Shown in pieces: positions 7,874 to 57,822 of a stretch of 64,000 bases of DNA. The stretch lies in contig CACODE010000004.1 of NCBI GenBank assembly GCA_902625885.1, forward strand, positions 40,751 through 104,750. Direction: 5' to 3'. Source of the stretch: an uncultured Candidatus Poseidoniales archaeon (GTDB lineage Archaea > Thermoplasmatota > Poseidoniia > Poseidoniales > Poseidoniaceae). The position numbers and the translations under genes are program-made. Below the pieces are notes generated by a model. That model was not told the origin of the DNA and did no database searches. It was given only the letters and a program-made list of their open reading frames with translations. Every line of letters starts with the position of its first letter. Within the stretch, counting starts at the first letter, position 1.

Positions 7874-7889
7874 AGGAGTCCTTGTTGGG

Positions 7890-8648: not shown

Positions 8649-8659
8649 AACCGGGTGTA

Positions 8660-9586: not shown

Positions 9587-9595
9587 GTGTTCACC

Positions 9596-10342: not shown

Positions 10343-10475
10343 CTACAATCTTCAATTCACCCACGGAGAGTTGCTTCATGAACCTTGCCACCTGACCTCT
10401 TGCTACGTCACGCCGGGTTCCTCTGCCTTGCTCTTTGGATAGCCTTATGAACCGTCCAGCCCAGCGACAAGTTCC

Positions 10476-11327: not shown

Positions 11328-11328
11328 A

Positions 11329-12474: not shown

Positions 12475-12483
12475 GCTATCGCC

Positions 12484-37590: not shown

Positions 37591-37719
37591 ATGGCCACCA
37601 ATTTGAGGAGAGCGCTATATGATGGTGAAGGATGCCGGCGTCCTCAATACCTACAAGAGGTTGACAAAGAAATGAAGAAGTTAAACCTCTTGGTTAACAT
37701 GAGGACGGTTGGTGAATGA
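37591..37719 (+). CDS. candidate 42-codon upstream ORF coupled to the 390-aa gene
   Basis: Hand translation gives MATNLRRALYDGEGCRRPQYLQEVDKEMKKLNLLVNMRTVGE*. Its TGA (37717-37719) overlaps the ATG (37716-37718) of the next gene as ATGA. Confidence 0.2.
   Translation: MATNLRRALYDGEGCRRPQYLQEVDKEMKKLNLLVNMRTVGE
37654..37692. repeat. 9-bp perfect inverted repeat CAAGAGGTT-n21-AACCTCTTG upstream of the island operon
   Basis: Read directly from the sequence. It lies inside the candidate uORF, 24-62 nt upstream of the ATG at 37716. Confidence 0.6.
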
Positions 37720-38888
37720 GCGCGGTAGATTCTCCCCGGGAATTGCCCTATGCCTCCGTGGATATCCTCAACGGAATTGAAATCAAGATTGGCGAGGGTT
37801 GGATTAAATTTTCTTACCCACTGGCTAAGGGCATTGAGAGAATAGAAATCAGTTGTGCTTGGATTGAGTCAAACCCAGCAGATAGAATCGGTATCTGGGT
37901 AGGTCTGTCTGACGAAAGAGTCCCGCAAACGCTTACCGCATGGGGTAATGGCCATGCTATTGGATTGGAATCCTATGGTGAAAACTCACCAATCGTAGAT
38001 GTAGAACGCTGGGAATTTGGAAAGTCCGCCAAATTGATTGTTGAAACGAAACAACAAGAGATGAAATTGAACGTTTACCTTCTCTGCCGCCCTCGATTGG
38101 ATGATTTGAAAAGATCACTTGAGATTACCATTGATGAGTATTCTGCAATAAACGGGATGAAACCAGAAAATTCAGAAACAAGGGTATACGAATTTCAGCG
38201 AGCAGAAAAAAGCCCTATGATGAGGACAACAATATCGAAACTCGAGGAGTTGGGTTCACTAAATTACACAGGGATTGGAAACGTCATCCATCCCAAACAA
38301 ATTCTTACGCTCAAGGCGCTTCAGCACCTCCTCAGAAAGAAGATGCTCAACGATGAAAAATCATTTTCTGTCGCTTACGTTGGGACAGACACCCTTGAGA
38401 ACCTAACCAGCATCATTCGATGGCTCGAATCAAAGGGATTGTATGGACAGATCACAGAAATCAAGGCATATACTTACGACGATTGGGATGACAAACTCCA
38501 AGATCTGCTCGATGATTTGGTTCCTGTAAATATTGGAAACGACTCAAAAGTAGACCTTGTGCCGAACAATGAATCACAAAGGGCCGATGCTTCCAGCCAC
38601 GATGTTGTCATCACTACTTATGTGTGCCCTTGGATAAAAAAAGACGATAGGGATGACTTCCAGGCGCTCATTGACAAACTCGTAGGTCCGAATTCCGTGC
38701 TTATCTCTGTTGACCCCAAAACTGCGTTAAACTCAGTTAGGAGTCCAATTTTTAATTCCAATGAGTACAATCCTCAGTCAATATACAAGGGAGAAGATGG
38801 ACTTGAATTAAGCAATCTTAAGACGTTCAAATTCCACGCTGCAGAGGCAATAATCTACAAACGAAAAAAGGGGTGGGTGATGAGATGA
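37716..38888 (+). CDS. hypothetical protein (390 aa), first large gene of the low-GC island operon
   Basis: Long ORF with A/T-rich codon third positions. No motif I can assign. The C-terminal half has an alternating beta-alpha pattern ('FSVAYVGTD...','HDVVITTYV','NSVLISVDP') vaguely like a Rossmann/methyltransferase fold. Confidence 0.6.
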   Translation: MSAVDSPRELPYASVDILNGIEIKIGEGWIKFSYPLAKGIERIEISCAWIESNPADRIGIWVGLSDERVPQTLTAWGNGHAIGLESYGENSPIVDVERWEFGKSAKLIVETKQQEMKLNVYLLCRPRLDDLKRSLEITIDEYSAINGMKPENSETRVYEFQRAEKSPMMRTTISKLEELGSLNYTGIGNVIHPKQILTLKALQHLLRKKMLNDEKSFSVAYVGTDTLENLTSIIRWLESKGLYGQITEIKAYTYDDWDDKLQDLLDDLVPVNIGNDSKVDLVPNNESQRADASSHDVVITTYVCPWIKKDDRDDFQALIDKLVGPNSVLISVDPKTALNSVRSPIFNSNEYNPQSIYKGEDGLELSNLKTFKFHAAEAIIYKRKKGWVMR

Positions 38889-41800: not shown

Positions 41801-42895
41801 AATAAGGATGTTATCAAAGATGCTCTGAATAAGATATTCTTCGTGAATCAATTTGAAATTTCATCTGAGAAGGTGCCTGAGGACCTGAGTGTTTTTTGGC
41901 AGTACAGAGTTGATTGCGCAATGCTCCTTGCAGAATTACTGAATCTCGGATTCCGTTCTCCTTTGGACGAAATTTGTATGACGAATGAAGCAATTTACGC
42001 ACTTGCAAATTTATCAGAAACGCTAGATTATTCTGATGTTTTCGATACCATTTCTTGGTATCATAGCATAATGACAGATGAAGAAGATGTGCAGGAACCG
42101 TGGGAAGACTTTGTACCTTGGAATGCAGAACTTCTTCTCAAGCGAGTAAAGAAAAATCCACTGTTGATTCATGATTTTGACAGCCTCATCCATCTCGTTG
42201 GAGTTCAACTAGACCATGGGGACCGATCGGTTGATAACGTCCGTCCATTGTTCAACCTACATCATGTTGAGCTGGCAGATTCCTTGCTTACCGGCAGCGA
42301 GAATGATTATTGTTGGAGTGCGTGGGGGATGCGTTCCCCATCAGCTAGCGAATACAATCTAACCATGCACTTTCTCTCTGAGGGGCATCAACAGGAATAT
42401 GATACAAAACATTATTTGCACAACAACCAAGTTTTTGTTTCCAGATCATCGCTGGCTCAAAATCTCAGTTTGAGAGAGAATGAAGAACGCATTTTTGACG
42501 GGTTAAGGCGTTCGATCGTGGAGATTGTTTTCGGAAACCTCTACGGTAAAAACTGGGAGAACAAGGTAGAGGAATTGTATGGTTTGGTAAAAGACCAATC
42601 CGAATCAATAAACAAATTGTATGATGAGATGTTCTGTGTTGCGTACGATGACTTCTTTTTCTACTACAATGACAATCCACCTGATGTCATTTGGATTGGA
42701 CACGAATTCTATGAAACAAGCATCGAAAAGAAAGGGATTTCACTCATTCCGTTCGTTGCTTACGCTATCGGGAATGTCGATGGTGACATTCGGAATCAAT
42801 TTTACGAAGATAGCCACGATGTAGCAATTGATTTTGTTCTTGATGCAGGGAAGAGTGCTGTCAACAGATTCCGATATCCGTCAACTCGAAAATAG
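38885..42895 (+). CDS. giant STAND NTPase: unknown N-domain + TPR repeats + NACHT-type P-loop + ~600-aa helical C-terminal region
   Basis: Walker A 'VLRGDAGSGKSIAM', Walker B 'IRFLIFGDAVDEIPD' (NACHT-like DGxDE) and 'IYLAVRPGF' (TSRP-like). TPR-like repeats lie upstream ('EAKALNSLGISAKNRQDYASARIYYNASCNL...SKSLVNLGILEQGVGRFGDARAYFRRAINM'). The ATG at 38885 overlaps the upstream TGA as ATGA; an alternative GTG is at 38873. Confidence 0.7.
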   Translation: MKTLPSQSQSETANGVRSFHTNSVRAISDRVRSMISPQPTAIFYDEIVHQLGSVEPDTIEYFIRVCNIVCKIKSQNTLRTENLIQLADYDSRALDEFETFVLSSPEIKNRKFKHNLARVFRDVLPKRELSRFNELTTNIGNSELRPPPTVDQYALAEDEIKTPPSIRRRSTSSAKVGDDLLSWLTESSIPLELLCMFFHDLAKPEPRGEMGFLRFLCRSSVIVLGQKQYSNAPSTAVRGSSELILVCSESEFYANREKYSQFVVLNCKNSDEFLALHNERFSSTYERYITSLSNATMFGKCGSKVTRIDKLYSTRNFFPVKTQGDKNNLTTVSPESIDEINSNRGSKEVELEEKLWEELEQARGMGVDSVRLAEALHNVGKHVRNQTSDDTVADELFDECLKVSKRINYIEGEAKALNSLGISAKNRQDYASARIYYNASCNLMEDCSNYEGLSKSLVNLGILEQGVGRFGDARAYFRRAINMKEKHGLNVSPALYSRLDVVSGAGSGINPNRRAPPSRTSANTFRQLLGQRSEIFVLRGDAGSGKSIAMVQFANHYITAIEQKMDDNSWDHNDIVIPIFLKSRHLDIKWGSWKNGLGDTAIEVEGPLSPSVITDGILRSNPSLQDQLSASELTNFFEFLEAAGEYLNIRFLIFGDAVDEIPDEHQRGVFCEWVRSMSKQKHSEIYLAVRPGFPEVEQLATNDQIVDLEIPVDVLKNEMPNMLCRAWGISEELADVYQERFEEFEELLTHPLYVGWFCFLLYSNELTDDIVGTATEKKHAVIQRIVEIGIDSALDRRESPLANLDPVKRKEFHKKVRQFIALAHHSPSEPAVKSYFDKLEKLTDYSFTEDEKHAIQHDCGILFLADNGLVWTHHTVPEIIYADHIHELWNGDLNPSLMAGKPRISTPFIQRLSSLRGSTKLEIARELLEYPSITKSDADVLFSIADRFDWSGNELYLDEHGVSDVPLLDVRPNKDVIKDALNKIFFVNQFEISSEKVPEDLSVFWQYRVDCAMLLAELLNLGFRSPLDEICMTNEAIYALANLSETLDYSDVFDTISWYHSIMTDEEDVQEPWEDFVPWNAELLLKRVKKNPLLIHDFDSLIHLVGVQLDHGDRSVDNVRPLFNLHHVELADSLLTGSENDYCWSAWGMRSPSASEYNLTMHFLSEGHQQEYDTKHYLHNNQVFVSRSSLAQNLSLRENEERIFDGLRRSIVEIVFGNLYGKNWENKVEELYGLVKDQSESINKLYDEMFCVAYDDFFFYYNDNPPDVIWIGHEFYETSIEKKGISLIPFVAYAIGNVDGDIRNQFYEDSHDVAIDFVLDAGKSAVNRFRYPSTRK

Positions 42896-44595: not shown

Positions 44596-46395
44596 ATGAA
44601 CAGGGACGTCATATGGCTCGTCGTTGTCCTTCTGTTGGGAGGAAGTTTGCTCACGATGATGGCGCAGGACCAAGAGGTGGCGGACGTCGAGCAGGAGGAG
44701 GAACAGACGGTTGAGGAAGAACAGTCTTGCGTGGTTGGCACGGAAAAAGTGTACAACGCTTCCGCTGCTTTGGGTTTTGATTGCGTGCCGCTCGACCCGC
44801 ACAAGCTCGCACACAACCACCCCGCACCGGTTCTGACGGTTTCGGACGTCATCGACGACGGGGCCGTTGTTGTTTTCATCGGCAGCATTGACCACTTGCA
44901 CCCCGAAGAAATCCTCGTCACAGCGACGTACGATGGCGACATGACGCTATCAACCCAACCAAACCTGCAGGGTCAATGGTCGATGACGGTGCGCACCAGC
45001 GCCGAAGAGCCGCTGCAGTTTTCCATAACGGCGAGACACCCTTCGGAAGGGACGTCGTCAGCCACCACGGTGGTCGATGTTGAGCGAACCTCCGACGATG
45101 ATGGTTCGTCCCCAGATGAGGAAGAGGGAGACGGTAATGGCAATGCTTCGGGCGGCGAGGCAGGGTCCGGAGAGAACAACAGCACCACCGGCAACCAATC
45201 ATCAGAAACAAACGCCACGGACGAGGGCAACGACCCCGAACCGGCGACACCGACCTACAACGCTTCCGACATGGGGTCATTTTGGCTCGATGTTTTCCGC
45301 TGCCAGCCGGGACAAAACATCACGCAGGTTGACGATTTGACCACGTCTGCCGTGGAAACTCACGAATGCTCGGTGAGCATCACGATGAACGAAACCCACA
45401 TCACCATCGTGGCCAACGGCCTGCCGGACCATGATTTCGAGTCTACCTTGGCTTGCTCACAAGGCAATGACTGCACGCGCGCCCAAAATTACGAATGGAC
45501 CGTTCCTCGCTCGCCGGTCAACGACACCACGGGCGGCCACGACGCCACGGATTGTCCCGAAGCCAACGGCGATTACGAATGCGCTCCCGCTCGCGGCGAG
45601 GTCGCCATCGCCATTAACGGCGTCCCGTTTTACGGTCCAGAGGACGGTCCGGGTGGCGATGCTGTAGCGAGTCAGCACGGCGCCTACGAGGAAGACCGGC
45701 AACCCATCGTCCTCGGCGTGTGCCACGCCCACAACGGCCAAGGCGGGACCTTCCACTACCACGCCGACGCCAACTGCCTTCACTGGCACCCCGAGGAGGG
45801 TGAAACCATGTTTGACTACGACACCAGCACGCCTGCCGCCGTAGCGCAAAACACCGCCAACGGTTCCCACTCTTCTGTGATCGGCGTTGGCATGGATGGC
45901 TACCCCATCTACGGCCTCTGGGGGTACGACAATGACATGAACATCGTTGAGATGAAGAGCTCTTACCGGTTGAAGTCGGGTGAGACGGGTTACAACGGCA
46001 TTGATGATTACGAGTTTGTTGCTGGTTTGGGTCATCTCGATGTTTGCAACGGACACTTTGGTCCAACCCCCGAATTTCCGGATGGTATCTACCATTATCA
46101 CTCGACCATGATGAACGGCGACGGGGCCATGGGCTTCCCCTATTTCCTGTTGTGCTATCACGGTGAAACCTTCCTCGATGAAAGTGGCAGCGGTGCTGAC
46201 TGTTCCGGATTTGGTGAAACGTGGGGTCCTGGCATTGCTCCGCCTCCGGAAGGCTGTGGTAACGGGGGCGGTGGCGGTCAAGGCGGACAGCTGTCGGAGG
46301 TTCGGGTCGTTTCTTCGCAAGCCTTCTCACCCCTTGCCATGGTGTGGATGTTGGCGTTTAGCTTGATGTTGCTGAGGCAGCGGCGAAGGTCATGA
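44596..46395 (+). CDS. secreted YHYH-domain protein with acidic S/D/E/N-rich linker and C-terminal TM anchor
   Basis: N-terminal TM/signal, then 'GGTFHYHADANC' and 'DGIYHYHSTMMNG' (YHYH motifs), ending 'PLAMVWMLAFSLMLLRQRRRS'. Confidence 0.55.
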   Translation: MNRDVIWLVVVLLLGGSLLTMMAQDQEVADVEQEEEQTVEEEQSCVVGTEKVYNASAALGFDCVPLDPHKLAHNHPAPVLTVSDVIDDGAVVVFIGSIDHLHPEEILVTATYDGDMTLSTQPNLQGQWSMTVRTSAEEPLQFSITARHPSEGTSSATTVVDVERTSDDDGSSPDEEEGDGNGNASGGEAGSGENNSTTGNQSSETNATDEGNDPEPATPTYNASDMGSFWLDVFRCQPGQNITQVDDLTTSAVETHECSVSITMNETHITIVANGLPDHDFESTLACSQGNDCTRAQNYEWTVPRSPVNDTTGGHDATDCPEANGDYECAPARGEVAIAINGVPFYGPEDGPGGDAVASQHGAYEEDRQPIVLGVCHAHNGQGGTFHYHADANCLHWHPEEGETMFDYDTSTPAAVAQNTANGSHSSVIGVGMDGYPIYGLWGYDNDMNIVEMKSSYRLKSGETGYNGIDDYEFVAGLGHLDVCNGHFGPTPEFPDGIYHYHSTMMNGDGAMGFPYFLLCYHGETFLDESGSGADCSGFGETWGPGIAPPPEGCGNGGGGGQGGQLSEVRVVSSQAFSPLAMVWMLAFSLMLLRQRRRS

Positions 46396-46616: not shown

Positions 46617-47726
46617 TTAGGTTTCGAACTTGTGGGTGAGGGGCCGTCCGATTTTTTGGGCGATGAACCGTATCAGGCCCCAGTTGAGTCGACGCCACCA
46701 GGAAAGATGAGAGGTTTTGACCATCGTGAATTCTTCGTTGGTCACACCACCGCGCAATTTCTTGAATTTGTTCGCTCCAGAACTGGCGTGCCGCTGGAAA
46801 TTGTTGTCCGAACAGGTTCTTGCGATTTTGGCCGTCAGGATACGGTAAAGCACGTGCGCCTGCGGGTGGTCGAAATCGTAGCCCAATACCGGCATGGTGG
46901 CAACACCATCCACGACCTTCATGCCCAACACCCCGATGATGTGGTCTCCGTCGAGCAACAACTGGTAGTGCAAAATGCTGCGGCTGGCACACTGGGCATG
47001 AAACAACGGGGTGAACCGAGGGTTGTTTTTGGAATACTTGCCGAGGTACAACCGGTTGTACAGTTCGGCAACCCGAGCCGCTTGTTCCTCGTCCAACTTT
47101 ACGCCCGATCGCCACGTGAACCCCAATTTCTTAACGAGGTGTTCGTCTCGCAGTATTTGCCGCCTCTTGACTCTCGGGTAGGTTTCGATCGGTTTGAACG
47201 GAAACAGCAACACGTTGCGAGCAAACATCGGTTTGAACCCGCACTCGGTCAACGCGTCGTAATCGCTTGCATTGAGGCCTCGATTCACCGAGCGAACCAA
47301 AATGGCATGCTTTGGGTTGGCCTTCTGCACCCGACCGACGGCTTCTTTCCATTCGTCTGCGCTCAACCCTTTTGGGAAAAGGTTGGTTGAAAGGCCGAAA
47401 TTGTTGATGGCAAACGCCTGGTCCACCTTTGCAAAGCGCAGGCACAAACCGAACAACCAAACCGGCGGCATCAACATCAGTTTTGAGAAGCGAAGACCAA
47501 CGATGTCCATCTCTTCCTTGAGGTAGTGGTAGTTGTGGGTGACGGTTGAGATTGTGTAGCACAACGTTTCCTTTGTCATTCTGTTTTTGGTGTACGGCAC
47601 CTGCTTGTCACCAAGCGCTAGCAATCCTGATTCACAATCCAAATTGTCGGCAAGGTTTGCCCATCCATGCTGGCGTACCATCTCGCCCCATTCCCGCACC
47701 AATTCGGTGTGGGGGAGGGGTTCCAT
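46617..47726 (-). CDS. FemAB/GNAT-like acyltransferase-fold protein
   Basis: 369 aa. The C-terminal half ('LLLDGDHIIGVLGMKVVDGVATMPVLGYD...ASSGANKFKKLRGG') resembles FemAB-like/Acetyltransf_6 proteins. Divergent from the ATP-grasp operon. Confidence 0.4.
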   Translation of the reverse strand: MEPLPHTELVREWGEMVRQHGWANLADNLDCESGLLALGDKQVPYTKNRMTKETLCYTISTVTHNYHYLKEEMDIVGLRFSKLMLMPPVWLFGLCLRFAKVDQAFAINNFGLSTNLFPKGLSADEWKEAVGRVQKANPKHAILVRSVNRGLNASDYDALTECGFKPMFARNVLLFPFKPIETYPRVKRRQILRDEHLVKKLGFTWRSGVKLDEEQAARVAELYNRLYLGKYSKNNPRFTPLFHAQCASRSILHYQLLLDGDHIIGVLGMKVVDGVATMPVLGYDFDHPQAHVLYRILTAKIARTCSDNNFQRHASSGANKFKKLRGGVTNEEFTMVKTSHLSWWRRLNWGLIRFIAQKIGRPLTHKFET

Positions 47727-47818: not shown

Positions 47819-48937
47819 ATGGCCAAGATTCTCGTGACCTGTGCGAGAAGTCCTGCCGCCGTGCACCTTGGAAGACTGCTGCACGAATCGGGCCATAGCG
47901 TGATGCTGGCCGACACCAAACGGCTGCATCTGGGCAGGTGGAGGTCTTGGCCCGACAAGTGCTTGCGCCATCCCTCGCCACGGCATCAACCCCAACGCTT
48001 TGCTGAGTGGTTGCAAAACGTTGTGAAAACGGAAGCGATTGATTGCGTTATCCCGGTTTACGAGGAAACGTTCCATCACGGCCTTAACCATGGAACTCTT
48101 GACTGCGAGCACTTCTGCTCCGACATTGAAACCTTGGACAGGTTGCACAACAAGTTTGAATTCATACAATTCGCAAGAAGTTGTGGTATCGAAGTTCCAG
48201 AGACCATCATGGTGGAACACATCGATGAAATCAAATCGAAGTTGACCTCAAATCACATCCTCAAACCGGTGTATTCGAGATTTGGTGAAAACGTCATCCT
48301 GAAACCGAACCCATCCAAGCTAAACATCAAGGTCAACAAAACAAATCCGTGGATTCTCCAGCAGAGGCTTGATGGAAAACAGTACTGCTTGCAAGGGATT
48401 TGCAAGAACGGCAAGGTGTTGTCTAGCGTTGCGTATTCCAGCGATTTCACCGTTTCCAAGACCTCTGTGTTCTTTGAGAAAACCGGCAAAGGCGACTTGG
48501 GTGGCATCATTGAAAAAATAGCGTCAAACTGCAACTACACAGGTTTTCTTTCGTTCGACGTCATTTTGGGCGAAGACGGCATTGCAAGGCCGATTGAATG
48601 CAACCCGAGAGCCACCAGCGCCCTGCATTTGTATGCGATGCAGGACAAGATCGATGACGCTATCCTGAATGGAAACACCGTCCAATGCACGGGCGTGAGT
48701 CGAAGGCTGGTGTTGCCGATGTGGTTCAATCTCCTGGCCAACCTGTTCAAGAAGAACCATGTTCGGGAGTGGAGAAAAGCCCGAAAGCGGTCAACCTCGG
48801 TAGAATGGAACGTCTTTGACCCAAGGCCCGGCCTTCTGCAACTGATTTCCCTTGTCGGGTTTGCAGCGGTGGCCCTCAGAAACAGAACATCCCTCATCGC
48901 TGCGACCACCCATGAATTCGAATGGAACGGCAAATGA
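47819..48937 (+). CDS. ATP-grasp family enzyme
   Basis: 'MAKILVTCARSPAAVHLGRLL' pre-ATP-grasp Rossmann-like start, plus 'ILKPVYSRFG', 'LQQRLDG' and 'IECNPRATSALHLY'. A GGTGGTGAG Shine-Dalgarno-like element precedes the ATG at 47819. Confidence 0.6.
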   Translation: MAKILVTCARSPAAVHLGRLLHESGHSVMLADTKRLHLGRWRSWPDKCLRHPSPRHQPQRFAEWLQNVVKTEAIDCVIPVYEETFHHGLNHGTLDCEHFCSDIETLDRLHNKFEFIQFARSCGIEVPETIMVEHIDEIKSKLTSNHILKPVYSRFGENVILKPNPSKLNIKVNKTNPWILQQRLDGKQYCLQGICKNGKVLSSVAYSSDFTVSKTSVFFEKTGKGDLGGIIEKIASNCNYTGFLSFDVILGEDGIARPIECNPRATSALHLYAMQDKIDDAILNGNTVQCTGVSRRLVLPMWFNLLANLFKKNHVREWRKARKRSTSVEWNVFDPRPGLLQLISLVGFAAVALRNRTSLIAATTHEFEWNGK

Positions 48938-48983
48938 ATGGCGGGTCAATCCTTTTTATTGAGATGCAATGACAGGCGTTTAG

Positions 48984-50006
48984 GTGGTTTGCGTGAAGAC
49001 ACAAATCTCTGGTTTTGCGTGCTACCTCCCACCCAATCTCATCAAAAGCGAGGACGTCATTCCGTTTGGCACCTTGCCCAGAGGCATTGACTTCAAGCGT
49101 CTAACCAAAATCGAAGCGCATCATGAGGTCCTGGAAGGCCAAGGGTCGCTTGAACTCGCCGTGGAAGCCGCCCAAAAAGCGATTGCAAGGTCGGGGGTGA
49201 ACAAAGAAGAGATCGATCTCGTCATTTCCTGCTCGGTCACCAAAATGAGCGGCGAACTTCAGAATTTGATTGAACCGTGCTTGGCTTCTCACATCTGCAG
49301 TGCACTCGATATCAAAGCTCAAAACTTCGACATCGCCAACGCCTGCCTTGGCATGGTGACGGGCATCCTCATCGCAGACAGAAAAATAAGGTCTGGAAAA
49401 ATCCGCCACGCCCTCATCGTTGCCGGTGAATACCTCACCGAGGCGCTGTACGAAGCGCTCGGCAAAAACCTGCTCTTCAATCAAAAGGCCTTCTCGAGTT
49501 TAACCATAGGCGACGCAGGTGGCGCCTACGTCGTTTCTGGAAGCGACGAGGAACGCATTCAATTCCACGAACCGATGACGCTGGCTCAGCACAGCCAGTT
49601 GTGCATCGGCGATGCTGCTGTCGGTCGACCCGGACCAGCGATGCGAACCTACGGCAAAAAACTCCAAAACGCCGCTCTAGAAAACTTGGGCGCCTACTTC
49701 AAACGCAATTTCAAGAGCCAAGAAGATTATGCTTCTCACGACCACATCATCTCGCATCAAACCACGCCAAGGGCGGTCAGCAAGGGCGCCCTGATCGCCG
49801 AAAAGACATGGGGCAGCGGGGACGCCGTACGCTCGATTTCGCACACCGGGAACACCGCTTCAACCTCCCATGCCGCCGTTTTGGAGACCTTGCTTGAGGA
49901 CGGAGCGTTGCTGTCCAACCAGAAGGTCTACTTGATGGCCTTCGGTTCGGGCCTTTCGTTCATGGGCATGAGTTTCCATCTCCCATCCGGGGTGGAAACA
50001 TGGTAG
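48984..50006 (+). CDS. beta-ketoacyl-ACP synthase III (FabH/KAS III-like) with intact Cys-His-Asn triad
   Basis: 'DIANACLGMVTG' (Cys), 'ISHQTTPRA' (His) and 'GNTASTSHA' (Asn). Confidence 0.75.
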   Translation: MVCVKTQISGFACYLPPNLIKSEDVIPFGTLPRGIDFKRLTKIEAHHEVLEGQGSLELAVEAAQKAIARSGVNKEEIDLVISCSVTKMSGELQNLIEPCLASHICSALDIKAQNFDIANACLGMVTGILIADRKIRSGKIRHALIVAGEYLTEALYEALGKNLLFNQKAFSSLTIGDAGGAYVVSGSDEERIQFHEPMTLAQHSQLCIGDAAVGRPGPAMRTYGKKLQNAALENLGAYFKRNFKSQEDYASHDHIISHQTTPRAVSKGALIAEKTWGSGDAVRSISHTGNTASTSHAAVLETLLEDGALLSNQKVYLMAFGSGLSFMGMSFHLPSGVETW

Positions 50007-50710
50007 GGATTTTGGCGTTTGAGTTTGAGCCCATCAAGAGAAAATCACTCTTGAAATCCCTCAAAGGCATCACGCAACGACTCTGCAAAAAAAACGCCAT
50101 CAACCCAGCAGACATTGGTTTGATGGTTCACACGGGGACGTACCGGCAGAATTTCCGGCAAGAACCGGCCTTTGCAGCCCACCTGCAGCAAGCGCTTGAC
50201 ATCGGGTGCGCAAACATCGGCCCGACCAGCAAACACACGTTTTCCTTTGACGTGAGCGATGGCGCTTGTGGCCCCCATCATGCGTTAGAAACCATCGCCG
50301 ATCTCTTCCCGGTCATCGGTTGCAAGTACGCTTTGCTCACCGCTGGCGATTGCCGTCCAAACAAGGAAACGCCGTGGCCTCACAAGCCAATCTCGTTCGC
50401 TGCTATCATCTCCGAGGACGGTCCGCTGCAAATCCTTGACACACGCTTTGATTACGAGCAGGAAAACGACTTTACATCCAGCACAAAATTCAACAAAAAA
50501 TACCACACAGAGGCCTTTACCTCAAAACCACACATCACGAAACATCGCGTTGAGGAAAACTGCTTCATCGCCTCTTCGGCATGGCTATGCGGTGAACAAC
50601 TGTCGAGGTTTGTCGAGTGGGCTTCATCGCAAAACGGCACCGTCACGCACCGCATTGAGAACAAGAACGGGAGGGTCTCGGAATTGAACTGGAGGGTGAA
50701 AGGTGAATAG
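50000..50710 (+). CDS. truncated KAS III-like (thiolase-fold N-terminal half only) protein
   Basis: 'FDVSDGACGPHHALE' resembles the KAS III Cys region, but the 236-aa protein lacks the His/Asn half. Its ATG overlaps the upstream TAG (ATGGTAG). Confidence 0.45.
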   Translation: MVGILAFEFEPIKRKSLLKSLKGITQRLCKKNAINPADIGLMVHTGTYRQNFRQEPAFAAHLQQALDIGCANIGPTSKHTFSFDVSDGACGPHHALETIADLFPVIGCKYALLTAGDCRPNKETPWPHKPISFAAIISEDGPLQILDTRFDYEQENDFTSSTKFNKKYHTEAFTSKPHITKHRVEENCFIASSAWLCGEQLSRFVEWASSQNGTVTHRIENKNGRVSELNWRVKGE

Positions 50711-52304
50711 GCCGAAGTTTGTCTATGGCTTCTGCATCTTCCTGACCCTCTACCACCTGACCGCTCGATTGGGCCTCGCCACCGATTTGCAATGGCATCT
50801 GGACGTGGGCCGGGACAGCATGTGGACGCCGCCTCACATCATGATTTTTGCAGGATTTCCAGTATGTGCTTTGCTTTCGCTGTATTATGTCTTGGTCACC
50901 ACGAGAGATCACAAGACGGGCATGGAACTGTCCGGTGTCCGAATCCTCGGGTTCGTCGCTCCGGGCTCGGTCTGGATGATTGTGCTTGGGACGTTCTCGC
51001 TCGGTGTCGGTGGCCTTTACGATGACTACTGGCATGCACAATTCGGCATTGACACCACGGTCATTACCCCACCTCATATGTTGACTTTGTTCGGTGGGAT
51101 GTTGGCGGAGTTTGCCAGTGTGTTGTTGGTTCGAGATTTGATCAATCACGATACAGAAAACCGATTCAAGGGCAAAAACATCATGGCTGCCGTGCTTCTT
51201 TGGACGCTGCTGTTTCACGGTAGTTTTTCGTTTTTGAATTTCATTGACCCTCGGGCGGCGACGGTCTCCGTGCTTGGGTTCAAAATGATGCTGCATTTGT
51301 TCTTCGGACCGTTCGTTGTCATGGCGATACTGCTGATTGGGAAGCAATGGTTTGACGGTCGGGTGATTTACCTGCTCGCTGGCTTCACGTTCCTGATTCA
51401 AACCGCCATGTTCGTGGTCATTCCCTTAGCCGTCGAGGCGCTCATGGGTCCTTCACATGCCTATCGACCGGGAGCGCCCTCCACTGTTTGGGCTGCGCAT
51501 TGCATCTCCTACCTCTTCCCCTTGGTCGCTGTTGCGTTTGTCAAATTTGATTTGGTTCGCCGGCCGAGTGTCTTGGTTGCCATCGCCTTGCTGAGCGATG
51601 TCATTTTCTCACCCTTTCTTCCCGTGAATTACCCATCTGAGGTGGGCCCGTTGGTGACCCTGGTCAACATCGTTGCAGCCTTTTTGCTGCTCAGATTGAG
51701 CCTTCCACCGCTCCATCAATACCTCGCCAGAATCCTTTCTTCCCTCGAGAGCGGCATCATCGAGTTCAAACCGAGAACCAAATCGCTCGCATTGCTGGCG
51801 ATTCTGGTCCTCATCACGCCCGTGAGCGCCCACGGCAACAATTACGAGGAGGGGTCCGGATTTGACGCTCCAATGCGTGTCCAAGTCGACATTGATGGCA
51901 TCGAAGTGTGGGTAGAATTCATGCTCTGGCCACCAAAAGCACCGCAATCCTGTGAGATGTTGCTGGTTGCTCAAGACAACGAATCTCGCATTGATGAGAT
52001 GTGGACGGAGATTGTTTTTCCTGATGAGAACGGCGAGGTGCGGATGATTCAAGCATTCAAACGGTACCCAGACCAGTCCATCTGGTTCGGTGAAAACCAT
52101 TTCACGTTCGGTGGAAATCAAACGCTCGAAATCAAGGCGCGGATCGCTGGTGAGGAGTACAGCGACACGGTCACACTGCAGGTTGAAGCCCCTTCAGTCG
52201 TCCCGGTATGGCTCGCTTGGACGTTTTCTTCGGTGTGGGTGTTCATGTTGTTCGCCCTTCCGTATTTTGTGGCCGGCATGCGGAGGTCGTCGGAGTGCGA
52301 ATAG
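50703..52304 (+). CDS. polytopic membrane protein with ~150-aa soluble domain and terminal TM
   Basis: 533 aa with more than 10 hydrophobic helices. The GTG start overlaps the upstream gene by 8 nt. Confidence 0.5.
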   Translation: MNRPKFVYGFCIFLTLYHLTARLGLATDLQWHLDVGRDSMWTPPHIMIFAGFPVCALLSLYYVLVTTRDHKTGMELSGVRILGFVAPGSVWMIVLGTFSLGVGGLYDDYWHAQFGIDTTVITPPHMLTLFGGMLAEFASVLLVRDLINHDTENRFKGKNIMAAVLLWTLLFHGSFSFLNFIDPRAATVSVLGFKMMLHLFFGPFVVMAILLIGKQWFDGRVIYLLAGFTFLIQTAMFVVIPLAVEALMGPSHAYRPGAPSTVWAAHCISYLFPLVAVAFVKFDLVRRPSVLVAIALLSDVIFSPFLPVNYPSEVGPLVTLVNIVAAFLLLRLSLPPLHQYLARILSSLESGIIEFKPRTKSLALLAILVLITPVSAHGNNYEEGSGFDAPMRVQVDIDGIEVWVEFMLWPPKAPQSCEMLLVAQDNESRIDEMWTEIVFPDENGEVRMIQAFKRYPDQSIWFGENHFTFGGNQTLEIKARIAGEEYSDTVTLQVEAPSVVPVWLAWTFSSVWVFMLFALPYFVAGMRRSSECE

Positions 52305-53194
52305 TCATCAGTGGAGCAACCGGTTCAATCGGCTCACAACTGATGGAGCGATTGTCGTCATTCCACGAGGTCGTCGGATTGGGCCGCGATGAAAGCAAAA
52401 TCAACTACATGGCCCGCCGTTTCACCATGAGTTCTTGCGACCTTGAGTCACAAGCATTCGAAACCATCGTTGCCTCGGCTGATTGTTTCATTCACTGCGC
52501 TGCGTTTGCTGCACCAAGAGGAAAAGCCGCACGTTTCCAAAAGAACGTTGACATCGTGAACGCCGTGATTCCGGTCCTGGAAGTCAACGATGTGTTCACG
52601 ATTTTCGTTTCATCCGCGTCGGTGTTTGACGGCATGCCTCGTGAAACGGCGTTGACCGACCCTTCGGCACGACCTCGGTCCTTGTATGCCAAATCAAAAT
52701 ACGACGCAGAACAAGCGGTGTTGAATTCGTCTTACAACAACTGGACCGGTCTTCGCCCACGAGCCGTCATCGGCAAGGGGGACAACACCGTAGCGCCGCG
52801 CCTTGATGCGCTGATCAGGGGCAACAAAATCCTCATCCCTGGAAAAGGCGATGCGCTGTTGGATTACACCTGCATGGAGAATTTCCTTGATTGCGTGGAG
52901 GCAACCATCGCTACTGGCGCTCAGCGGCGATTTTTCAACGTCAGCAACGGTGACCCAAGGCCGTTCAAAGAACTGGTGACGACCTACGCGAAACAGATTC
53001 ACAACATCACCGCCACCAAGCACGTACCTCTTTTACCGTTGAGAATAATGGCCAGCCTCTTTCCAACCGACAAAATCAACCACTATTCATTGGACCAAAT
53101 CAGCAAACCAATGGTCTTGGACCTGTCAGCGACCAAACGGGCTCTCACCTGGGAGCCAAAGCAAAGCCTGGAACAATGTTTGGAGGGGATGTGA
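52295..53194 (+). CDS. NAD(P)-dependent epimerase/dehydratase-family SDR
   Basis: 'ISGATGSIGSQL' (GxxGxxG) and 'YAKSKYDAE' (YxxxK). The GTG start overlaps the upstream gene by 10 nt. Confidence 0.7.
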   Translation: MRIVISGATGSIGSQLMERLSSFHEVVGLGRDESKINYMARRFTMSSCDLESQAFETIVASADCFIHCAAFAAPRGKAARFQKNVDIVNAVIPVLEVNDVFTIFVSSASVFDGMPRETALTDPSARPRSLYAKSKYDAEQAVLNSSYNNWTGLRPRAVIGKGDNTVAPRLDALIRGNKILIPGKGDALLDYTCMENFLDCVEATIATGAQRRFFNVSNGDPRPFKELVTTYAKQIHNITATKHVPLLPLRIMASLFPTDKINHYSLDQISKPMVLDLSATKRALTWEPKQSLEQCLEGM

Positions 53195-54462
53195 TGGGAA
53201 AACTCACCACGTTGTGGACATTTTACACCACACCAAAAATCCTCAAATCTCGGGCAAAAATCGACAAAATTCAGGAAAAGGGTATGGCCAAACAGGTGAA
53301 AATGGTCCGCAAAAAATCCCCCTTCTTTGCCCGACACTGGAAGGGCATTAACGACAAGGATTGGCGCCGTTTCCCACCGGTAAACAAGGAGGTTATGATG
53401 GCCAATTTACAGGACTACCTGACCGAGGACATCGATGTTGAATCGGCAAAAACGATGGCCTTGCAGGCAGAGAAATCACGCGATTTCAAGCAATCCCTCA
53501 AAGGGTACAGCATCGGTTTCTCGTCCGGTACCAGTGGCGCAAGAGGGATGCACATCGTCTCTAAAGCAGAACAAGACAGGTGGGCAGGCTACATGTTGGC
53601 CAGGGGTCTTGATGGCTCAATTTTGGGCAAGCACAGGATTGGGTTGTTCCTGCGAGCGAATTCAAACCTCTATGCGTCGGTTTCGTCATCGAGAATAACG
53701 TTCCAATTCTACGATTTGATGAGACCTCTGGACGACCTGGTCTCGGAATTGGTTCAAGACGCCCCTGACGTTCTGGTCGCCCCACCGAGCGTTCTGAGGT
53801 ACCTCGCAGACGAAAAAATAGGCATCAAATTCCGCAGGATTGTTTCGGTTGCCGAGGTGTTGACGCCGCTTGATAGAGCGACCATTGAACGGTATTTTCA
53901 AACCACGGTTCACCAATTTTACACCTCGACTGAGGGTGAAATTGCCGCCACTTGTGAACACGGTACCCTCCACCTCAACGAAGAGATCATGGTCGTTGAA
54001 AAGGAGTGGATTGACGAAGAACGGACCATGTTCCATCCCATCATCAGCGACTTCAAACGCAAGACGCAACCCATGATACGCTATCGGCAGAACGACATTT
54101 TGGTGCTGAGTAAAGAGCCATGCCCTTGCGGAGACGCCCGTCAAGCCATCGCTGAAATTCTTGGACGGCAGGACGATGTGTTCGAGTTTGAATCAACATC
54201 CGGCAACAAAGAACTGGTGGTTCCAGATTTGATTCGGAGAGCGACCATGGGCTTGCATTCCGGCATAACAGCCTACATGGTGGAACAGGTTTCTCCCAGC
54301 AACATCGTTGTTCAGCTTCAACCTCATCTGTCAAATCTGGACTTTTCCGGCTTCGAGCAACTTTGGGAGGCAAAAGAAATCGTTCCACCCGAAATATCGG
54401 TGGAAAGCTACGATTTTACACCGTCTGCGACGAAAATGAGGAGAATAAGCAAGCAATTCTGA
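53194..54462 (+). CDS. adenylate-forming enzyme (PaaK / coenzyme F390 synthetase / LuxE-like)
   Basis: 'GFSSGTSGARGMH' is a phosphate-binding-loop analogue of the ANL/PaaK 'SSGTTG' motif. Length and layout fit. The ATG shares 1 nt with the upstream TGA. Confidence 0.6.
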   Translation: MGKLTTLWTFYTTPKILKSRAKIDKIQEKGMAKQVKMVRKKSPFFARHWKGINDKDWRRFPPVNKEVMMANLQDYLTEDIDVESAKTMALQAEKSRDFKQSLKGYSIGFSSGTSGARGMHIVSKAEQDRWAGYMLARGLDGSILGKHRIGLFLRANSNLYASVSSSRITFQFYDLMRPLDDLVSELVQDAPDVLVAPPSVLRYLADEKIGIKFRRIVSVAEVLTPLDRATIERYFQTTVHQFYTSTEGEIAATCEHGTLHLNEEIMVVEKEWIDEERTMFHPIISDFKRKTQPMIRYRQNDILVLSKEPCPCGDARQAIAEILGRQDDVFEFESTSGNKELVVPDLIRRATMGLHSGITAYMVEQVSPSNIVVQLQPHLSNLDFSGFEQLWEAKEIVPPEISVESYDFTPSATKMRRISKQF

Positions 54463-54489: not shown

Positions 54490-55419
54490 TCACGAAAAAT
54501 ACGACAACAGAAAGGCGACGGTGAGTTTCAGCGGAATGAAGACGTTCCTCAGGCTTTGCTTGGGTTTTTTCATTTCTTTGTCGCTCAGGCCAGTCTTGAA
54601 CCAATACGTCATGTTGATGTTAAGGTCGTCAACGTGTTCAACGAAATGAAACCAACGAGACGGTATGAACAAGATGTCCCCTTCTTTCAATTCAACAACA
54701 TGAGGTTGGCACCTTTGCTGGTGAATCGATTTAAGACGACCGTGTTTGATGTCATCAAAAAAGGAAAAGGGGTGCATGCTCATTGCTTTGAAGGTCTTCA
54801 AGTGCTCCCAATTTTGGGGTGGAAACATCAAAATCTCTTTTTTCCCCTTGATTTGGAAATTCAGATTGTTGGCAAGCGAATCGTCGTAGTGGGTCATTGA
54901 CTGAATGCCGTTTCGACTCAACCAAAAGCCAACGGTGGAGAGCCTCGATAGCGGTATGAGGGCATTCTCACCACCGTATTCATCCAAGACTTCTTTGGCA
55001 TGATGCCACAACTCTGACCACTGCTCCACCACGGTATTTTTTGTGAAAATGTAGGTGTCGGTGCCCGACAAGAGGGTTCCGGGCTGTTTGAGGTCCAAGA
55101 ATTCCTTCAGCGAAACATGCTTTGAACGCAGCGACTTTGCGATGTTGAATACGCCGTCGGACGGGTCGACGAATTTCCCCGTGGGGGACGCCCGCATGCA
55201 CACCTTGCTCTCTCCCGCATGGTTTCTCAGCCACGGCTCGTCCAATATTTCTTGAAACGAAAAGACGGCTTCCTTTGAATAGACACACGGGGTGTTTTGT
55301 TGGATAGCCTCGCGAAATTCAGCCAAGGATGTGGCGACGGGGACTGGCTTCAAACCGGGCACAGGGCCGGCAAGACCGCCGCTGTTCGAACTTGCCATGA
55401 TGCGCTTAATCAACGCCAC
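54490..55419 (-). CDS. JmjC/cupin-like Fe(II)/2-oxoglutarate oxygenase-fold protein
   Basis: 'SMTHYDDS' (HxD) and a distal 'WFHFVEH' His, with the cupin beta-strand pattern between them. Confidence 0.55.
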   Translation of the reverse strand: MALIKRIMASSNSGGLAGPVPGLKPVPVATSLAEFREAIQQNTPCVYSKEAVFSFQEILDEPWLRNHAGESKVCMRASPTGKFVDPSDGVFNIAKSLRSKHVSLKEFLDLKQPGTLLSGTDTYIFTKNTVVEQWSELWHHAKEVLDEYGGENALIPLSRLSTVGFWLSRNGIQSMTHYDDSLANNLNFQIKGKKEILMFPPQNWEHLKTFKAMSMHPFSFFDDIKHGRLKSIHQQRCQPHVVELKEGDILFIPSRWFHFVEHVDDLNINMTYWFKTGLSDKEMKKPKQSLRNVFIPLKLTVAFLLSYFS

Positions 55420-55510: not shown

Positions 55511-55586
55511 TGGTGGACGTGCCGAGATTTGAACTCGGGGCCTCTACCATGCCAAGGTAGCGATCTTCCAACTGATCTACACGCCC
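55511..55586 (-). tRNA. tRNA-Ala (anticodon GGC), CCA encoded
   Basis: The reverse complement folds as GGGCGTG-TA-GATC-AGTTGGAA-GATC-G-CTACC-TTGGCAT-GGTAG-AGGCC-CCGAG-TTCAAAT-CTCGG-CACGTCC-A-CCA. The G3:U70 Ala identity pair is present. Confidence 0.88.
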
Positions 55587-56319: not shown

Positions 56320-56396
56320 GGACGTATAGTGTAGTCTGGATATCACTTCGGCCTTCTAAGCCGAAAACCCGGGTTCGAATCCTGGTACGTCCGCCA
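56320..56396 (+). tRNA. tRNA-Arg (anticodon TCT), CCA encoded
   Basis: Acceptor GGACGTA/TACGTCC, anticodon stem TCGGC/GCCGA with loop CTTCTAA, T arm CCGGG-TTCGAAT-CCTGG, then G-CCA. Confidence 0.85.
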
Positions 56397-56400
56397 CAAC

Positions 56401-57822
56401 TCAAGCAGATTTGAGGCGTGAAGCGTCAACCCACTCGTCCCAATCGGCGCTGTAATTGTCGTACGTGATGCGGTACGATTCGCCGTTGACTTCCAAGATT
56501 TGACCGTCGTACCACTGGCCGTGCCACTCAATTTTCACCTGCTGCCCGACGCTGTACGGGTTGTTGACCGGTGGATTTCCCGAGTGATGCACCGACGGAA
56601 AAGGCTCCACGCCTTCGGTTTGGTCGTCGCTCATCCACCCCGTGCTTGGGGGGGTGTCGGACGATGATTTGACCCGGTAGTAGTCGCCCCGTTTTCTGTC
56701 CAAGCTGTTGCGATTGGCCAAATACCACCACTGGTCACCGTTGCCCATTTTCCACCTTAGGAGGAGGACATCACCGTTGATGTAGCTCGGAACGCCGTCA
56801 AACTCGGTGGAGGGAAGGTACGTGCCGTTGCATTTTGACGTGCCAGCGCCCTGTACCGTGTAGAAGTGGTTGTCTGCATCGTTGAACGGATGATCGCTGG
56901 GGGTTTCTTTCCAACCGGTTGGCCCGACGACGTACACGGTGTTTTGTGTTTCAACCCGAGCGGTGGCTCGTTCGTCGTAGGTGACGCCAAGAACGGCCGA
57001 TGAGTTGATTCGGCCCTCACCAAGTTTTGGATGATCGTAGGCGTAGCCGGACAGTCCGTGTCCGTCGATCACAGCGTCGTGGATGACCACTTCGGGCTTG
57101 CTCGGTTGACTGATGTCCTCTTGGTCTGAGGCCACCATGAATTTTGCAAGCGACCGGTAGTCAATTTCGGAATCTAATTCAATGCCAAGGTCGACAAATT
57201 CACGTAGCACGTCGTCAACAGGGAGGGGATTGTCGCCGATTTCGCTCAAAATTCGAAGGTACTCACGGGCGGAAATCGTCCCCGTGTTGTTGGTGTCAAA
57301 GACCCGGAACGCGTCGATGAGTTCCTGTTCCTCGTTCATGACGTTTTCAACGTAAGCCTGAACCTCTGCAGAATCTTCGTTCAGCGGTTCAATGCGAATC
57401 CACTCCACGTTGTCCTCAACATCGCCATCGTCAAAGTGGATCAAAAATGTGTGATCTTCATGTTCCGAGGCAATTCGACCCGGATAGTAATGGCCGTATC
57501 GTTTCCAATCCACGAGCACTCGGTCCCCGGCCTTGAACGGCGGACTCGCCGGCCGTATGGTCCCCGGGGCAGAGCCGATGACAACGGCGTGCTTCGTTTG
57601 CACGATGCCGTTCTGGTAAGGGACTTCGATTTTGTAGGTTCCATCATCGTTGATGCCCATGACCTTGCAGCGATCCAACCAGCGGGCGTTGGTCGGGCTG
57701 TGGTATTCAACGTGGTCGCCGACATTGAACGCAGCCGGTAGAGCAACCTCGGGCGTGGGTGGGGGGGGCTGCGGGTGTGGTTGGTGTCGGGTTGACCATC
57801 CCCATCTGCTGCAGTGCGGCAA
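56401..57822 (-). CDS. multidomain protein: Tudor/SH3-like barrels + EF-hand pair + beta-rich domain + C-terminal Tudor-like barrel (3' portion of a frame-split gene)
   Basis: Canonical EF loop 'DTNNTGTISAREY'. Barrel-like segments 'GDRVLVDWKRYGHYYPGRIA' and 'GQQVKIEWHGQWYDGQILEVNGESYRITYDNY'. Confidence 0.6.
   Translation of the reverse strand: MPHCSRWGWSTRHQPHPQPPPPTPEVALPAAFNVGDHVEYHSPTNARWLDRCKVMGINDDGTYKIEVPYQNGIVQTKHAVVIGSAPGTIRPASPPFKAGDRVLVDWKRYGHYYPGRIASEHEDHTFLIHFDDGDVEDNVEWIRIEPLNEDSAEVQAYVENVMNEEQELIDAFRVFDTNNTGTISAREYLRILSEIGDNPLPVDDVLREFVDLGIELDSEIDYRSLAKFMVASDQEDISQPSKPEVVIHDAVIDGHGLSGYAYDHPKLGEGRINSSAVLGVTYDERATARVETQNTVYVVGPTGWKETPSDHPFNDADNHFYTVQGAGTSKCNGTYLPSTEFDGVPSYINGDVLLLRWKMGNGDQWWYLANRNSLDRKRGDYYRVKSSSDTPPSTGWMSDDQTEGVEPFPSVHHSGNPPVNNPYSVGQQVKIEWHGQWYDGQILEVNGESYRITYDNYSADWDEWVDASRLKSA

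Follow-up and report, generated by a model that had tools for sequence, protein, structure and literature searches.

What would an archaeon make with a condensing enzyme of the fatty-acid type, encoded in one run of overlapping genes together with a reductase, an adenylate-forming enzyme and two proteins that seem to belong to no known family? This question is raised by positions 47819-54462 of a 64,000-nucleotide stretch of DNA from an uncultured Candidatus Poseidoniales archaeon (assembly GCA_902625885.1, contig CACODE010000004.1, positions 40,751 to 104,750), which is called the window throughout. The Poseidoniales (Marine Group II) are uncultured and globally abundant, and are the most abundant archaea of the surface ocean. 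We propose, with a probability of about 0.6, that the locus encodes a dedicated acyl-condensation pathway that operates independently of an acyl carrier protein (ACP), is conserved in the Poseidoniales and leads to a hydrophobic small molecule or lipid. Its centre is a conserved, overlap-coupled unit of five genes for a KAS III (β-ketoacyl-ACP synthase III), a protein corresponding to one half of such an enzyme (half-KAS), a membrane protein, a short-chain dehydrogenase/reductase (SDR) and an adenylate-forming enzyme (adenylase), preceded in the window by an ATP-grasp gene:

47819..48937, + strand: ATP-grasp gene, ATG start, TGA stop
48938-48983: intergenic gap of 46 nt between the ATP-grasp and KAS III genes
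48947..48960, + strand: conserved BRE/TATA-like element CAATCCTTTTTATT, within this gap
48984..50006, + strand: KAS III gene, GTG start, TAG stop
50000..50710, + strand: half-KAS gene, ATG start, TAG stop, 7-nt overlap with the KAS III gene (ATGGTAG)
50703..52304, + strand: membrane protein gene, GTG start, TAG stop, 8-nt overlap with the half-KAS gene
52295..53194, + strand: SDR gene, GTG start, TGA stop, 10-nt overlap with the membrane protein gene
53194..54462, + strand: adenylase gene, ATG start, 1-nt overlap with the SDR gene (TGATG)

An earlier reading of the same letters (the original prediction) had described six open reading frames (ORFs) with four overlapping junctions and one 46-nt gap, and the ORF table and the junction sequences place all of them exactly there. 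Its domain calls are likewise correct, namely an ATP-grasp protein, a KAS III with Cys-His-Asn, a truncated thiolase fold, a polytopic membrane protein, an SDR and an adenylase of the PaaK/F390 type. The adenylase start is set at 53194 and not at the mechanical ORF start 53176, because the homologues are 422 residues long, and for KAS III an alternative start, GTG 48993, lies 6 nt behind AGGTGG and is better placed than GTG 48984. The claim of a single translationally coupled six-gene unit survives in part: the coupling stands but the conserved unit counts five genes, the ATP-grasp gene not being found beside the core in the loci L001-L005 and L092.

How well is this unit conserved? Loci were retrieved via homologues of the adenylase or the membrane protein and their proteins share 35-77% identity. 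In every retrieved Poseidoniales locus long enough to span the core (L001-L005, L007, L009, L010, L091 and L092) the same five genes follow each other in unchanged order and overlap or abut at their junctions, and the KAS III and half-KAS genes overlap by ATGGTAG in every locus. The unit occurs in at least three genomic contexts, flanked in L001-L005 by TauE or FA_hydroxylase genes upstream and a peptidase M28 or PALP enzyme gene downstream, in L009, L010 and L091 by 3HCDH/adh_short and HD hydrolase genes, and in L092 by genes of KaiC-like ATPases and the V-ATPase operon. The original prediction had staked itself on such synteny, which is strong in archaea and, as described below, partial in bacteria. 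On the 1.4-Mb long-read contig L091 the operon (5795-12897) is broken into many short fragments, most likely by frameshift errors of the long-read assembly and not by genuine pseudogene formation.

The 46-nt gap itself seems to carry a signal. It contains CAATCCTTTTTAT, and the 13-mer recurs at L007 5754-5766 and L092 7191-7203. In each of the three cases it lies upstream of KAS III, 22-25 nt from the start; the proteins of these lineages are only about 45% identical. In the window the 13-nt motif CAATCCTTTTWAT is found a single time, with 0.12 occurrences expected, and L092 has the 13-mer but no ATP-grasp gene upstream. The 13-mer is thus a probable promoter of the BRE/TATA type for the five-gene core, and possibly includes the site of a regulator. 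Since the gap holds this conserved TATA-like element and the ATP-grasp gene, together with a divergent gene for a 369-aa protein, is limited to some lineages, the locus is better described as a five-gene core with an accessory divergent pair than as one six-gene operon.

The condensing enzyme of the core appears from its sequence to be a divergent but catalytically complete member of the KAS III type. Both Pfam domains, PF08545 and PF08541, score above their cut-offs, and the putative triad Cys118, His255 and Asn287 (codons 49344, 49755 and 49851) aligns with C112, H244 and N274 of FabH and is invariant in seven Poseidoniales homologues. In a search of the PDB the protein aligned over its full length to the FabH structures of E. 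coli and Y. pestis (E 6e-17 to ~1e-16, 65 bits), to OleA over residues 57-158 only (46 bits) and weakly to PqsC (27 bits). It carries insertions relative to FabH and stays below the cut-offs of the NCBIfam models PRK09258 (123 bits, cut-off 285), PRK09352 (113, 249), fabH/TIGR00747 (91.3, 292.1) and PRK07204 (57, 402). Neither in the operon nor within 10 kb around it (L001-L010 and L092) was a gene found for ACP, FabD, FabF/B, FabG, FabZ or FabI, and the only adh_short/KR genes near the core in these loci are part of a β-oxidation-like set in L009. An ordinary FabH inside a locus of type II fatty-acid synthesis (FAS II), the second finding that would have spoken against the original prediction, is therefore not what the operon contains, given FabH-model scores below cut-off and the lack of ACP and FAS II genes.

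Half-KAS is predicted to be a homologue of the N-terminal half of KAS III. It has no match in Pfam and no sequence match in the PDB, and in NCBIfam its one match is weak, namely PRK09258 (19 bits, E 7e-4), which is a model for KAS III. When the profiles of the two families are compared with hhalign, residues 23-143 pair with KAS III positions 58-177 at a probability of 95% and E 4e-8. The AlphaFold2 (AF2) model is poor (shallow alignment, predicted local distance difference test score, pLDDT, of 50), so the fold assignment is taken mainly from hhalign; the topology of the model, β-α-β-α-β-α-β-β, is that of one thiolase half, and its top Foldseek matches are thiolase-fold enzymes throughout, PqsB chains among them. 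Half-KAS does not include the thiolase half that bears His and Asn. Its Cys90, in the motif FDVxDGxCGP, is near-invariant overall, invariant across the aligned divergent lineages and located one position past the canonical nucleophile. By analogy, half-KAS is probably a partner to KAS III that is itself non-catalytic or holds the acyl group. Homologues were found in Poseidoniales only (word-indexed search, one relative being named Thermoplasmatota), and a search of 80 bacterial loci described below revealed no counterpart (tblastn 1e-5; hmmsearch E<1).

The same holds for the membrane protein, the homologues of which are found in Poseidoniales only and always within the operon (word-indexed search); tblastn (1e-5) and hmmsearch (E<1) again found no counterpart among the 80 bacterial loci. 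Both proteins thus appear to be archaeal additions of no known family. The membrane protein is polytopic, comprises 533 residues and contains repeated WH...TPPH motifs, two copies of which are situated in the membrane domain. No family was found for it in Pfam or NCBIfam, and weak DUF373 matches occur in five of 22 family members. The AF2 model (pLDDT 80, pTM 0.82) consists of about ten helices followed by a C-terminal β-sandwich and a final transmembrane helix. The β-sandwich (residues ~391-495) resembles the copper protein CrdA of H. pylori (Foldseek TM 0.70 over 107 residues at 13% identity), and for the membrane domain Foldseek returned no credible structural match in the PDB. Invariant residues include H32, D34, D38, H45, D107, H111, D117, H125, H172, H252 and H377, the last of which directly precedes the CopC/CrdA-like domain.

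The SDR (PF01370, E 3.5e-20) is of the extended type, with the motifs GATGSIG and YAKSK of a predicted NAD(P)-dependent reductase, and its top NCBIfam model is OleD (74.1 bits, cut-off 580), the OleD/3-β-hydroxysteroid dehydrogenase type being closest. The adenylase is classified by its profile score as a member of the TIGR02304 family of F390-synthetase-related adenylate-forming enzymes (398.7 bits, cut-off 251.9; residues 9-427 match positions 2-427 of the 430 in the profile). The adenylation motifs are retained, with SSGTSG at 110 as the Ser/Thr/Gly-rich P-loop, YTSTEG at 243 as the YxxTEG motif and K414 as the C-terminal catalytic Lys; across 43 sequences no variation is seen at G108, S110, G112, T113, E247, G248 and K414. 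Its profile matches structures of phenylacetate-CoA ligase (PaaK) with E 6e-26, making PaaK the closest solved relative. Homologues fall into 2647 clusters at E<=1e-10, and the nearest are marine metagenome proteins, one of them named Candidatus Poseidoniaceae; identity is 56-99% to the Poseidoniales homologues and at most 47% to bacterial ones.

How could these proteins work together? Beyond the domain identities and the conserved gene set, we infer the mechanism from the known functions of the enzyme families. In the reading that we favour, the PaaK-type adenylase would adenylate a carboxylic acid, probably yielding a CoA thioester, and KAS III, by means of Cys-His-Asn, would join this thioester in a Claisen condensation either to malonyl-CoA or to another acyl-CoA, giving a β-keto product. 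For this step KAS III would probably form a heterodimer with half-KAS, as PqsC does with PqsB. The OleD-like SDR would then reduce the β-keto to a β-hydroxy group, and the membrane protein, with its conserved His/Asp motifs and its copper-protein-like domain, may receive, modify or export the hydrophobic product. Where the ATP-grasp and GNAT-like proteins are present, they may add a further group, for instance an amino acid, through an amide or ester bond. What the original prediction had proposed in general terms is supported, namely that this archaeon has a translationally coupled set of genes for an acyl or small-molecule pathway that matches no characterised one.

One gene of the accessory pair and a further neighbour are located on the opposite strand:

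46617..47726, - strand: gene for the 369-aa protein, divergent, upstream of the ATP-grasp gene
54490..55419, - strand: gene for an oxygenase of the Cupin_8/JmjC type, convergent with that of the adenylase at a distance of 27 nt

The ATP-grasp protein matches PF02655 (ATP-grasp_3, 26.5 bits, cut-off 23.2), its best NCBIfam model is NF005315/PRK06849 (271 bits, under the equivalog cut-off of 406), and its profile matches the ATP-grasp structure 2pn1 (E 1.3e-7). The 369-aa protein reaches PF13480 (FemAB-like GNAT) below threshold (E 1.4e-3, 19.2 bits, cut-off 22), and the GNAT label stays tentative, as neither sequence nor profile searches of the PDB found a solved structure for it. Both genes occur together in the window, L007, L009, L010 and L091 and are both missing beside the core in L001-L005 and L092; they are an accessory pair of some lineages only, and in L007, L009 and L010 they are direct neighbours. 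In archaea the divergent gene, which the original prediction had omitted, is thus present or missing along with the ATP-grasp gene, and it is, in addition, part of the bacterial cluster. The Cupin_8/JmjC-type oxygenase (PF13621, E 1.2e-27) is encoded at the corresponding position in the closest relatives L007 and L008 only, the other lineages having different genes there. It could possibly be a lineage-specific tailoring hydroxylase, and its membership is uncertain.

Other loci carry further genes beside the core. In L009 (1717-4541, - strand) the GNAT-like gene is followed on the same strand by genes for a 3-hydroxyacyl-CoA dehydrogenase (3HCDH) and an adh_short/KR SDR, and an adh_short SDR gene also comes after the GNAT-like gene in 25 of the 80 bacterial loci (e.g., L020 12497-13378), so that this SDR is a recurring second reductase tied to the accessory module. 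In one Poseidoniales lineage (L004/L005, 4504-5655) the gene immediately upstream of KAS III, which has the same orientation, encodes a membrane enzyme of the FA_hydroxylase family. A gene of the CD36 family, a lipid receptor family of eukaryotic type, is located downstream of the operon, at a distance of 6-9 kb, in L001 (17269-19503) and L004 (20510 onward). Homologues of FA_hydroxylase, of a 256-aa protein, of TauE, CD36 and the metallo-β-lactamase (MBL) fold protein of the bacterial loci were not found in the 64-kb window.

Where does the operon come from? In a sequence library clustered at 50% identity nearly all Poseidoniales adenylases form one cluster, three further entries being fragments, and the next matches show at most 45% identity, with the named ones belonging to Bacillota such as Planifilum. 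A scan of GTDB species genomes revealed 80 bacterial TIGR02304 loci, from Paenibacillus, Brevibacillus, Bacillus cereus, Metabacillus, Saccharibacillus, Scytonema and Nostocaceae as well as from alphaproteobacterial, Bdellovibrionales and other metagenome-assembled genomes. Within 7 kb of the adenylase gene and on the same strand, the following partners were counted:

lactonase-like MBL: 78 of 80 bacterial loci, between the SDR and adenylase genes
SDR homologue: 76 of 80
KAS III: 69 of 80
ATP-grasp homologue: 59 of 80
homologue of the 369-aa protein: 46 of 80, directly downstream of the TIGR02304 gene

All five partners are present together in 38 of these loci, and the genes usually follow each other as KAS III, ATP-grasp, SDR, MBL, adenylase, GNAT-like (370 residues). 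Identity to the window proteins amounts to 38-47% for the adenylase, 24-34% for the ATP-grasp protein, 23-32% for the SDR and 28-34% for the 369-aa protein (E 1e-32 to 1e-53 for the last). In the Metabacillus locus L019, KAS III scores 544 bits on PRK07204 and thereby exceeds its cut-off, as does the ATP-grasp protein with PRK06849; the SDR, the only bacterial one tested, has OleD as its top NCBIfam model (224.6 bits); and the nearest lactonases of the MBL are AttM, a lactonase of N-acyl homoserine lactones (87 bits), and 4-pyridoxolactonase (71 bits). In Scytonema sp. NUACC26 (L013, 2410-12471) a Rieske/VanA-type oxygenase and an ABC exporter are inserted between the ATP-grasp and SDR genes, which suggests a secreted, oxidatively tailored product. 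Our literature search found no paper on the bacterial TIGR02304 cluster, and nothing on FabH in Marine Group II.

The archaeal and bacterial clusters share a homologous adenylase, SDR, ATP-grasp protein and 369-aa protein as well as the presence of a KAS III, and in both the genes lie close together in one direction. Like the bacterial cluster, the window includes both an ATP-grasp gene (best model PRK06849) and a gene for a GNAT-like 369-aa protein, and in either domain these two vary more than the core does. In contrast, the genes are arranged in a different order, KAS III of the archaea falls outside PRK07204 (57 bits, cut-off 402), and the archaeal operon has a half-KAS and a membrane protein but no MBL: tblastn with the L019 MBL as query (E 1e-3) found no homologue in the 64-kb window, and no archaeal locus contains a gene of the MBL family. 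To judge from these sequence comparisons, the archaeal operon is a variant of the unnamed bacterial cluster and not a member of it, since the KAS III subfamily and the MBL do not agree.

The original prediction had suggested a bacterial origin based on a GC content in the mid-40s %. Bacterial kinship is indeed supported, as the nearest relatives outside the Poseidoniales are bacterial, and the low value is real for 48200-48600 (45.6%). As an argument for origin it is weak, because the cluster as a whole has 52.1% GC, about one standard deviation below the 55.0 +/- 2.6% of 1.1-kb windows elsewhere (outside the island at 37-43 kb). Recent horizontal gene transfer inferred from GC was rejected as weak on these values (52.1% versus 55.0 +/- 2.6%). 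Any transfer would have to be old, as the operon is common to Poseidoniales lineages the proteins of which are just 35-60% identical.

A recently acquired insertion is probably present elsewhere in the window, in the form of a low-GC island at 37716-42895 (43% versus ~55% around it) that encodes a 390-aa protein of no family and a 1340-aa TPR-containing protein, and for which PADLOC (37.7-42.9 kb) gave a generic TPR match only. The island is not in the closest relative L007, where the Aldedh, PMSR, photolyase and GNAT-like genes are contiguous. Between the photolyase gene and that of the 369-aa GNAT-like protein the window also contains, at 44596-46395 (+ strand), a gene for a 599-aa YHYH-domain protein (PF14240, E 1e-30) that is not found at the corresponding position in L007. 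The tRNA genes of the window are Ser-CGA (518-601), Ala-GGC (55511-55586, - strand) and Arg-TCT (56320-56396), the latter two being situated shortly 3' of the cluster. They are followed at 56401-57822 (- strand) by a gene for a 473-aa protein with matches to Tudor/Agenet-type and EF-hand domains, several of them near or below the Pfam cut-offs; such domains are typical of eukaryotic chromatin readers and calcium sensors and unusual for an archaeon.

How firmly, then, does an ACP-independent acyl condensation stand? In its favour count the lipid and acyl genes in or beside the operon of other lineages, FA_hydroxylase in L004 and 3HCDH with adh_short in L009, and the accessory genes of the bacteria, adh_short in 25 of 80 loci and the Rieske oxygenase and ABC exporter of Scytonema. 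Several points weigh against it. Substrate, product and order of reactions are derived from enzyme families and go past domain identity. The putative KAS III/half-KAS heterodimer is proposed by analogy, the half-KAS model is poor (pLDDT 50), and the role given to the membrane protein is a guess from motifs and a modelled domain match at 13% identity. The archaeal KAS III is not orthologous to that of the bacterial cluster (57 bits versus 544 bits for Metabacillus on PRK07204), so that the condensing step may have been recruited independently, and the MBL, the most constant of the bacterial partners, is missing from the archaeal loci. Moreover, relatives of F390 synthetase can adenylylate hydroxyl groups instead of forming thioesters, so that the proposed adenylase step could be wrong.

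Of the alternatives, the one that survives best takes its logic from the Ole and β-lactone pathways. KAS III and half-KAS would join two acyl-CoAs head to head in a non-decarboxylative manner to a 2-alkyl-3-keto acid, the SDR would reduce it, and the adenylase would act last, activating the carboxylate of the β-hydroxy acid, which would then close to a β-lactone or be handed on to an acceptor. The lactonase-like MBL of the bacteria would in this scheme serve to open the lactone or to process it, and amino acids would be added by their ATP-grasp and GNAT-like proteins. This would be consistent with OleD being the top NCBIfam model for both SDRs (74 bits for the archaeal, 224.6 bits for the bacterial one), with lactonases being closest to the bacterial MBL (AttM 87 bits, 4-pyridoxolactonase 71 bits), with the bacterial order SDR, MBL, adenylase and with the translational coupling of the archaeal SDR and adenylase genes. 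Paired thiolase subunits have also been reported for β-lactone pathways (LstA/B for lipstatin, NltA/B for nocardiolactone), and in belactosin and cystargolide a β-lactone is combined with ATP-grasp ligases. On the other hand, every OleD score is far under the cut-off of 580 bits, the adenylase is of the PaaK type and not an ANL enzyme of the OleC type, the operon has neither an OleB-type α/β-hydrolase nor, in archaea, an MBL, and KAS III matches OleA over residues 57-158 only (46 bits) but FabH over its full length (65 bits). We therefore hold this course of events to be rather unlikely, though worth keeping in mind.

More doubtful is a specific version of the product, namely that the operon builds a non-isoprenoid, acyl-derived compound of the Poseidoniales membrane, such as a head-to-head condensed, mycolic-acid-like lipid or a lactone or olefin lipid made from imported fatty acyl-CoAs. 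If this were true, a bacterial-type acyl lipid pathway would be fixed in a major archaeal order, which would bear on the 'lipid divide' and point to a possible new source of marine biomarkers, and the His/Asp-rich membrane protein would represent a new class of metal-dependent lipid-modifying enzymes.

Could the operon instead serve degradation? A PaaK-like ligase would then activate an aromatic or fatty acid taken up from outside, and its breakdown, similar to β-oxidation, would fall to the thiolase-fold enzymes and the dehydrogenase. Such a module would agree with Marine Group II being known as heterotrophs that use lipids, and PaaK is the nearest solved relative of the adenylase. The cluster in L009 also lies near 3HCDH and acyl-CoA dehydrogenase genes, and Poseidoniales have been inferred to degrade fatty acids (PMC6461757, PMC6336850). 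Yet a KAS III with Cys-His-Asn is of the biosynthetic kind and not a degradative thiolase with Cys-His-Cys, the SDR is of the extended epimerase/OleD type and not a 3-hydroxyacyl-CoA dehydrogenase, the operon contains neither an enoyl-CoA hydratase nor an acyl-CoA dehydrogenase, and ATP-grasp ligases and exporters in related clusters indicate synthesis. A catabolic function thus seems improbable.

Even less support is found for an ordinary FabH that initiates bacterial-type fatty-acid synthesis and supplies chains for the 'mixed' membranes proposed for Marine Group II. FabH enzymes do give the best matches among solved structures, and no residue of the triad is missing, but the scores are far under the FabH cut-offs (91 versus 292 and 113 versus 249 bits), ACP, FabD, FabF/B, FabZ and FabI are not encoded in or beside the operon in any locus, one condensing enzyme and one reductase would not suffice for iterative elongation, and half-KAS, the novel membrane protein and a PaaK-type adenylase are not components of FAS II, all of which makes this explanation very improbable. 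Chance juxtaposition of unrelated housekeeping genes, for which nothing was found except that the ATP-grasp and Cupin_8 genes are loosely attached, lineage-specific neighbours, is excluded because at least three genomic contexts show the same five-gene order at 35-77% identity, with genes that overlap or abut, and four of the families co-occur again in bacteria.

Genome surveys describe Marine Group II as degraders of lipids and proteins with an unresolved membrane chemistry, and emphasise fatty-acid degradation, a missing glycerol-1-phosphate dehydrogenase and possibly mixed membranes (PMC6461757, PMC6336850, PMC7852524); the operon is not mentioned in their main texts. An order-wide operon built on a condensing enzyme of the fatty-acid type therefore offers a concrete target for heterologous expression in search of a new metabolite or lipid. 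It is also linked to a widespread cluster of Bacillota, cyanobacteria and other bacteria that bears family-level labels only, so that solving either the archaeal or the bacterial system would annotate thousands of genes. Two protein families of no assigned function are added, the truncated thiolase partner and the membrane protein with His/Asp motifs and a copper-protein-like domain.

How does the operon compare with systems that are understood? The original prediction had seen a reminiscence of Ole and alkylquinolone logic and a match to none of the known pathways, and this assessment is upheld, as the cut-offs for FabH, OleD and PRK07204 are missed and genes for ACP or FAS II are not present. 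With FabH the window enzyme shares the KAS III fold and the Cys-His-Asn triad, but it stays under every FabH family cut-off, carries insertions and is encoded outside any ACP or FAS II context. With OleABCD the operon has in common a thiolase-fold condensing enzyme, an extended SDR with OleD as its best profile, an adenylate-forming enzyme and the lack of an ACP. It differs in the low OleD score (74 bits versus 580), in an adenylase of the PaaK/F390 type in place of the OleC-type ANL β-lactone synthetase, in a KAS III that is closer to FabH than to OleA in the PDB search, in the lack of an OleB α/β-hydrolase gene and in the additional half-KAS and membrane protein.

In the PqsABCDE system of Pseudomonas, PqsB, a thiolase-fold protein lacking the catalytic apparatus, pairs with the active PqsC, and PqsE is an MBL-fold hydrolase. 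Similar to Pqs, the operon combines a carboxylate-activating ligase with a KAS III-type condensation and a second thiolase-fold protein without the catalytic apparatus, PqsB and PqsC are among the sequence and fold matches, and the bacterial relatives carry an MBL-fold hydrolase as does Pqs with PqsE. Different from Pqs, the window KAS III has the full Cys-His-Asn and matches PqsC weakly (27 bits), half-KAS is shorter than PqsB (236 versus 283 residues) and retains a near-invariant Cys, and the operon contains an SDR but neither an MBL nor an ANL ligase of the anthranilate type. On the strength of these comparisons the operon can be classed as neither FabH/FAS II nor OleABCD nor Pqs. What it shares with these systems is the activation of a carboxylate and condensation by a thiolase fold, together with ketoreduction as in Ole and the lack of a carrier protein. 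The enzyme superfamilies are thus known ones, but their arrangement is matched by no characterised pathway.

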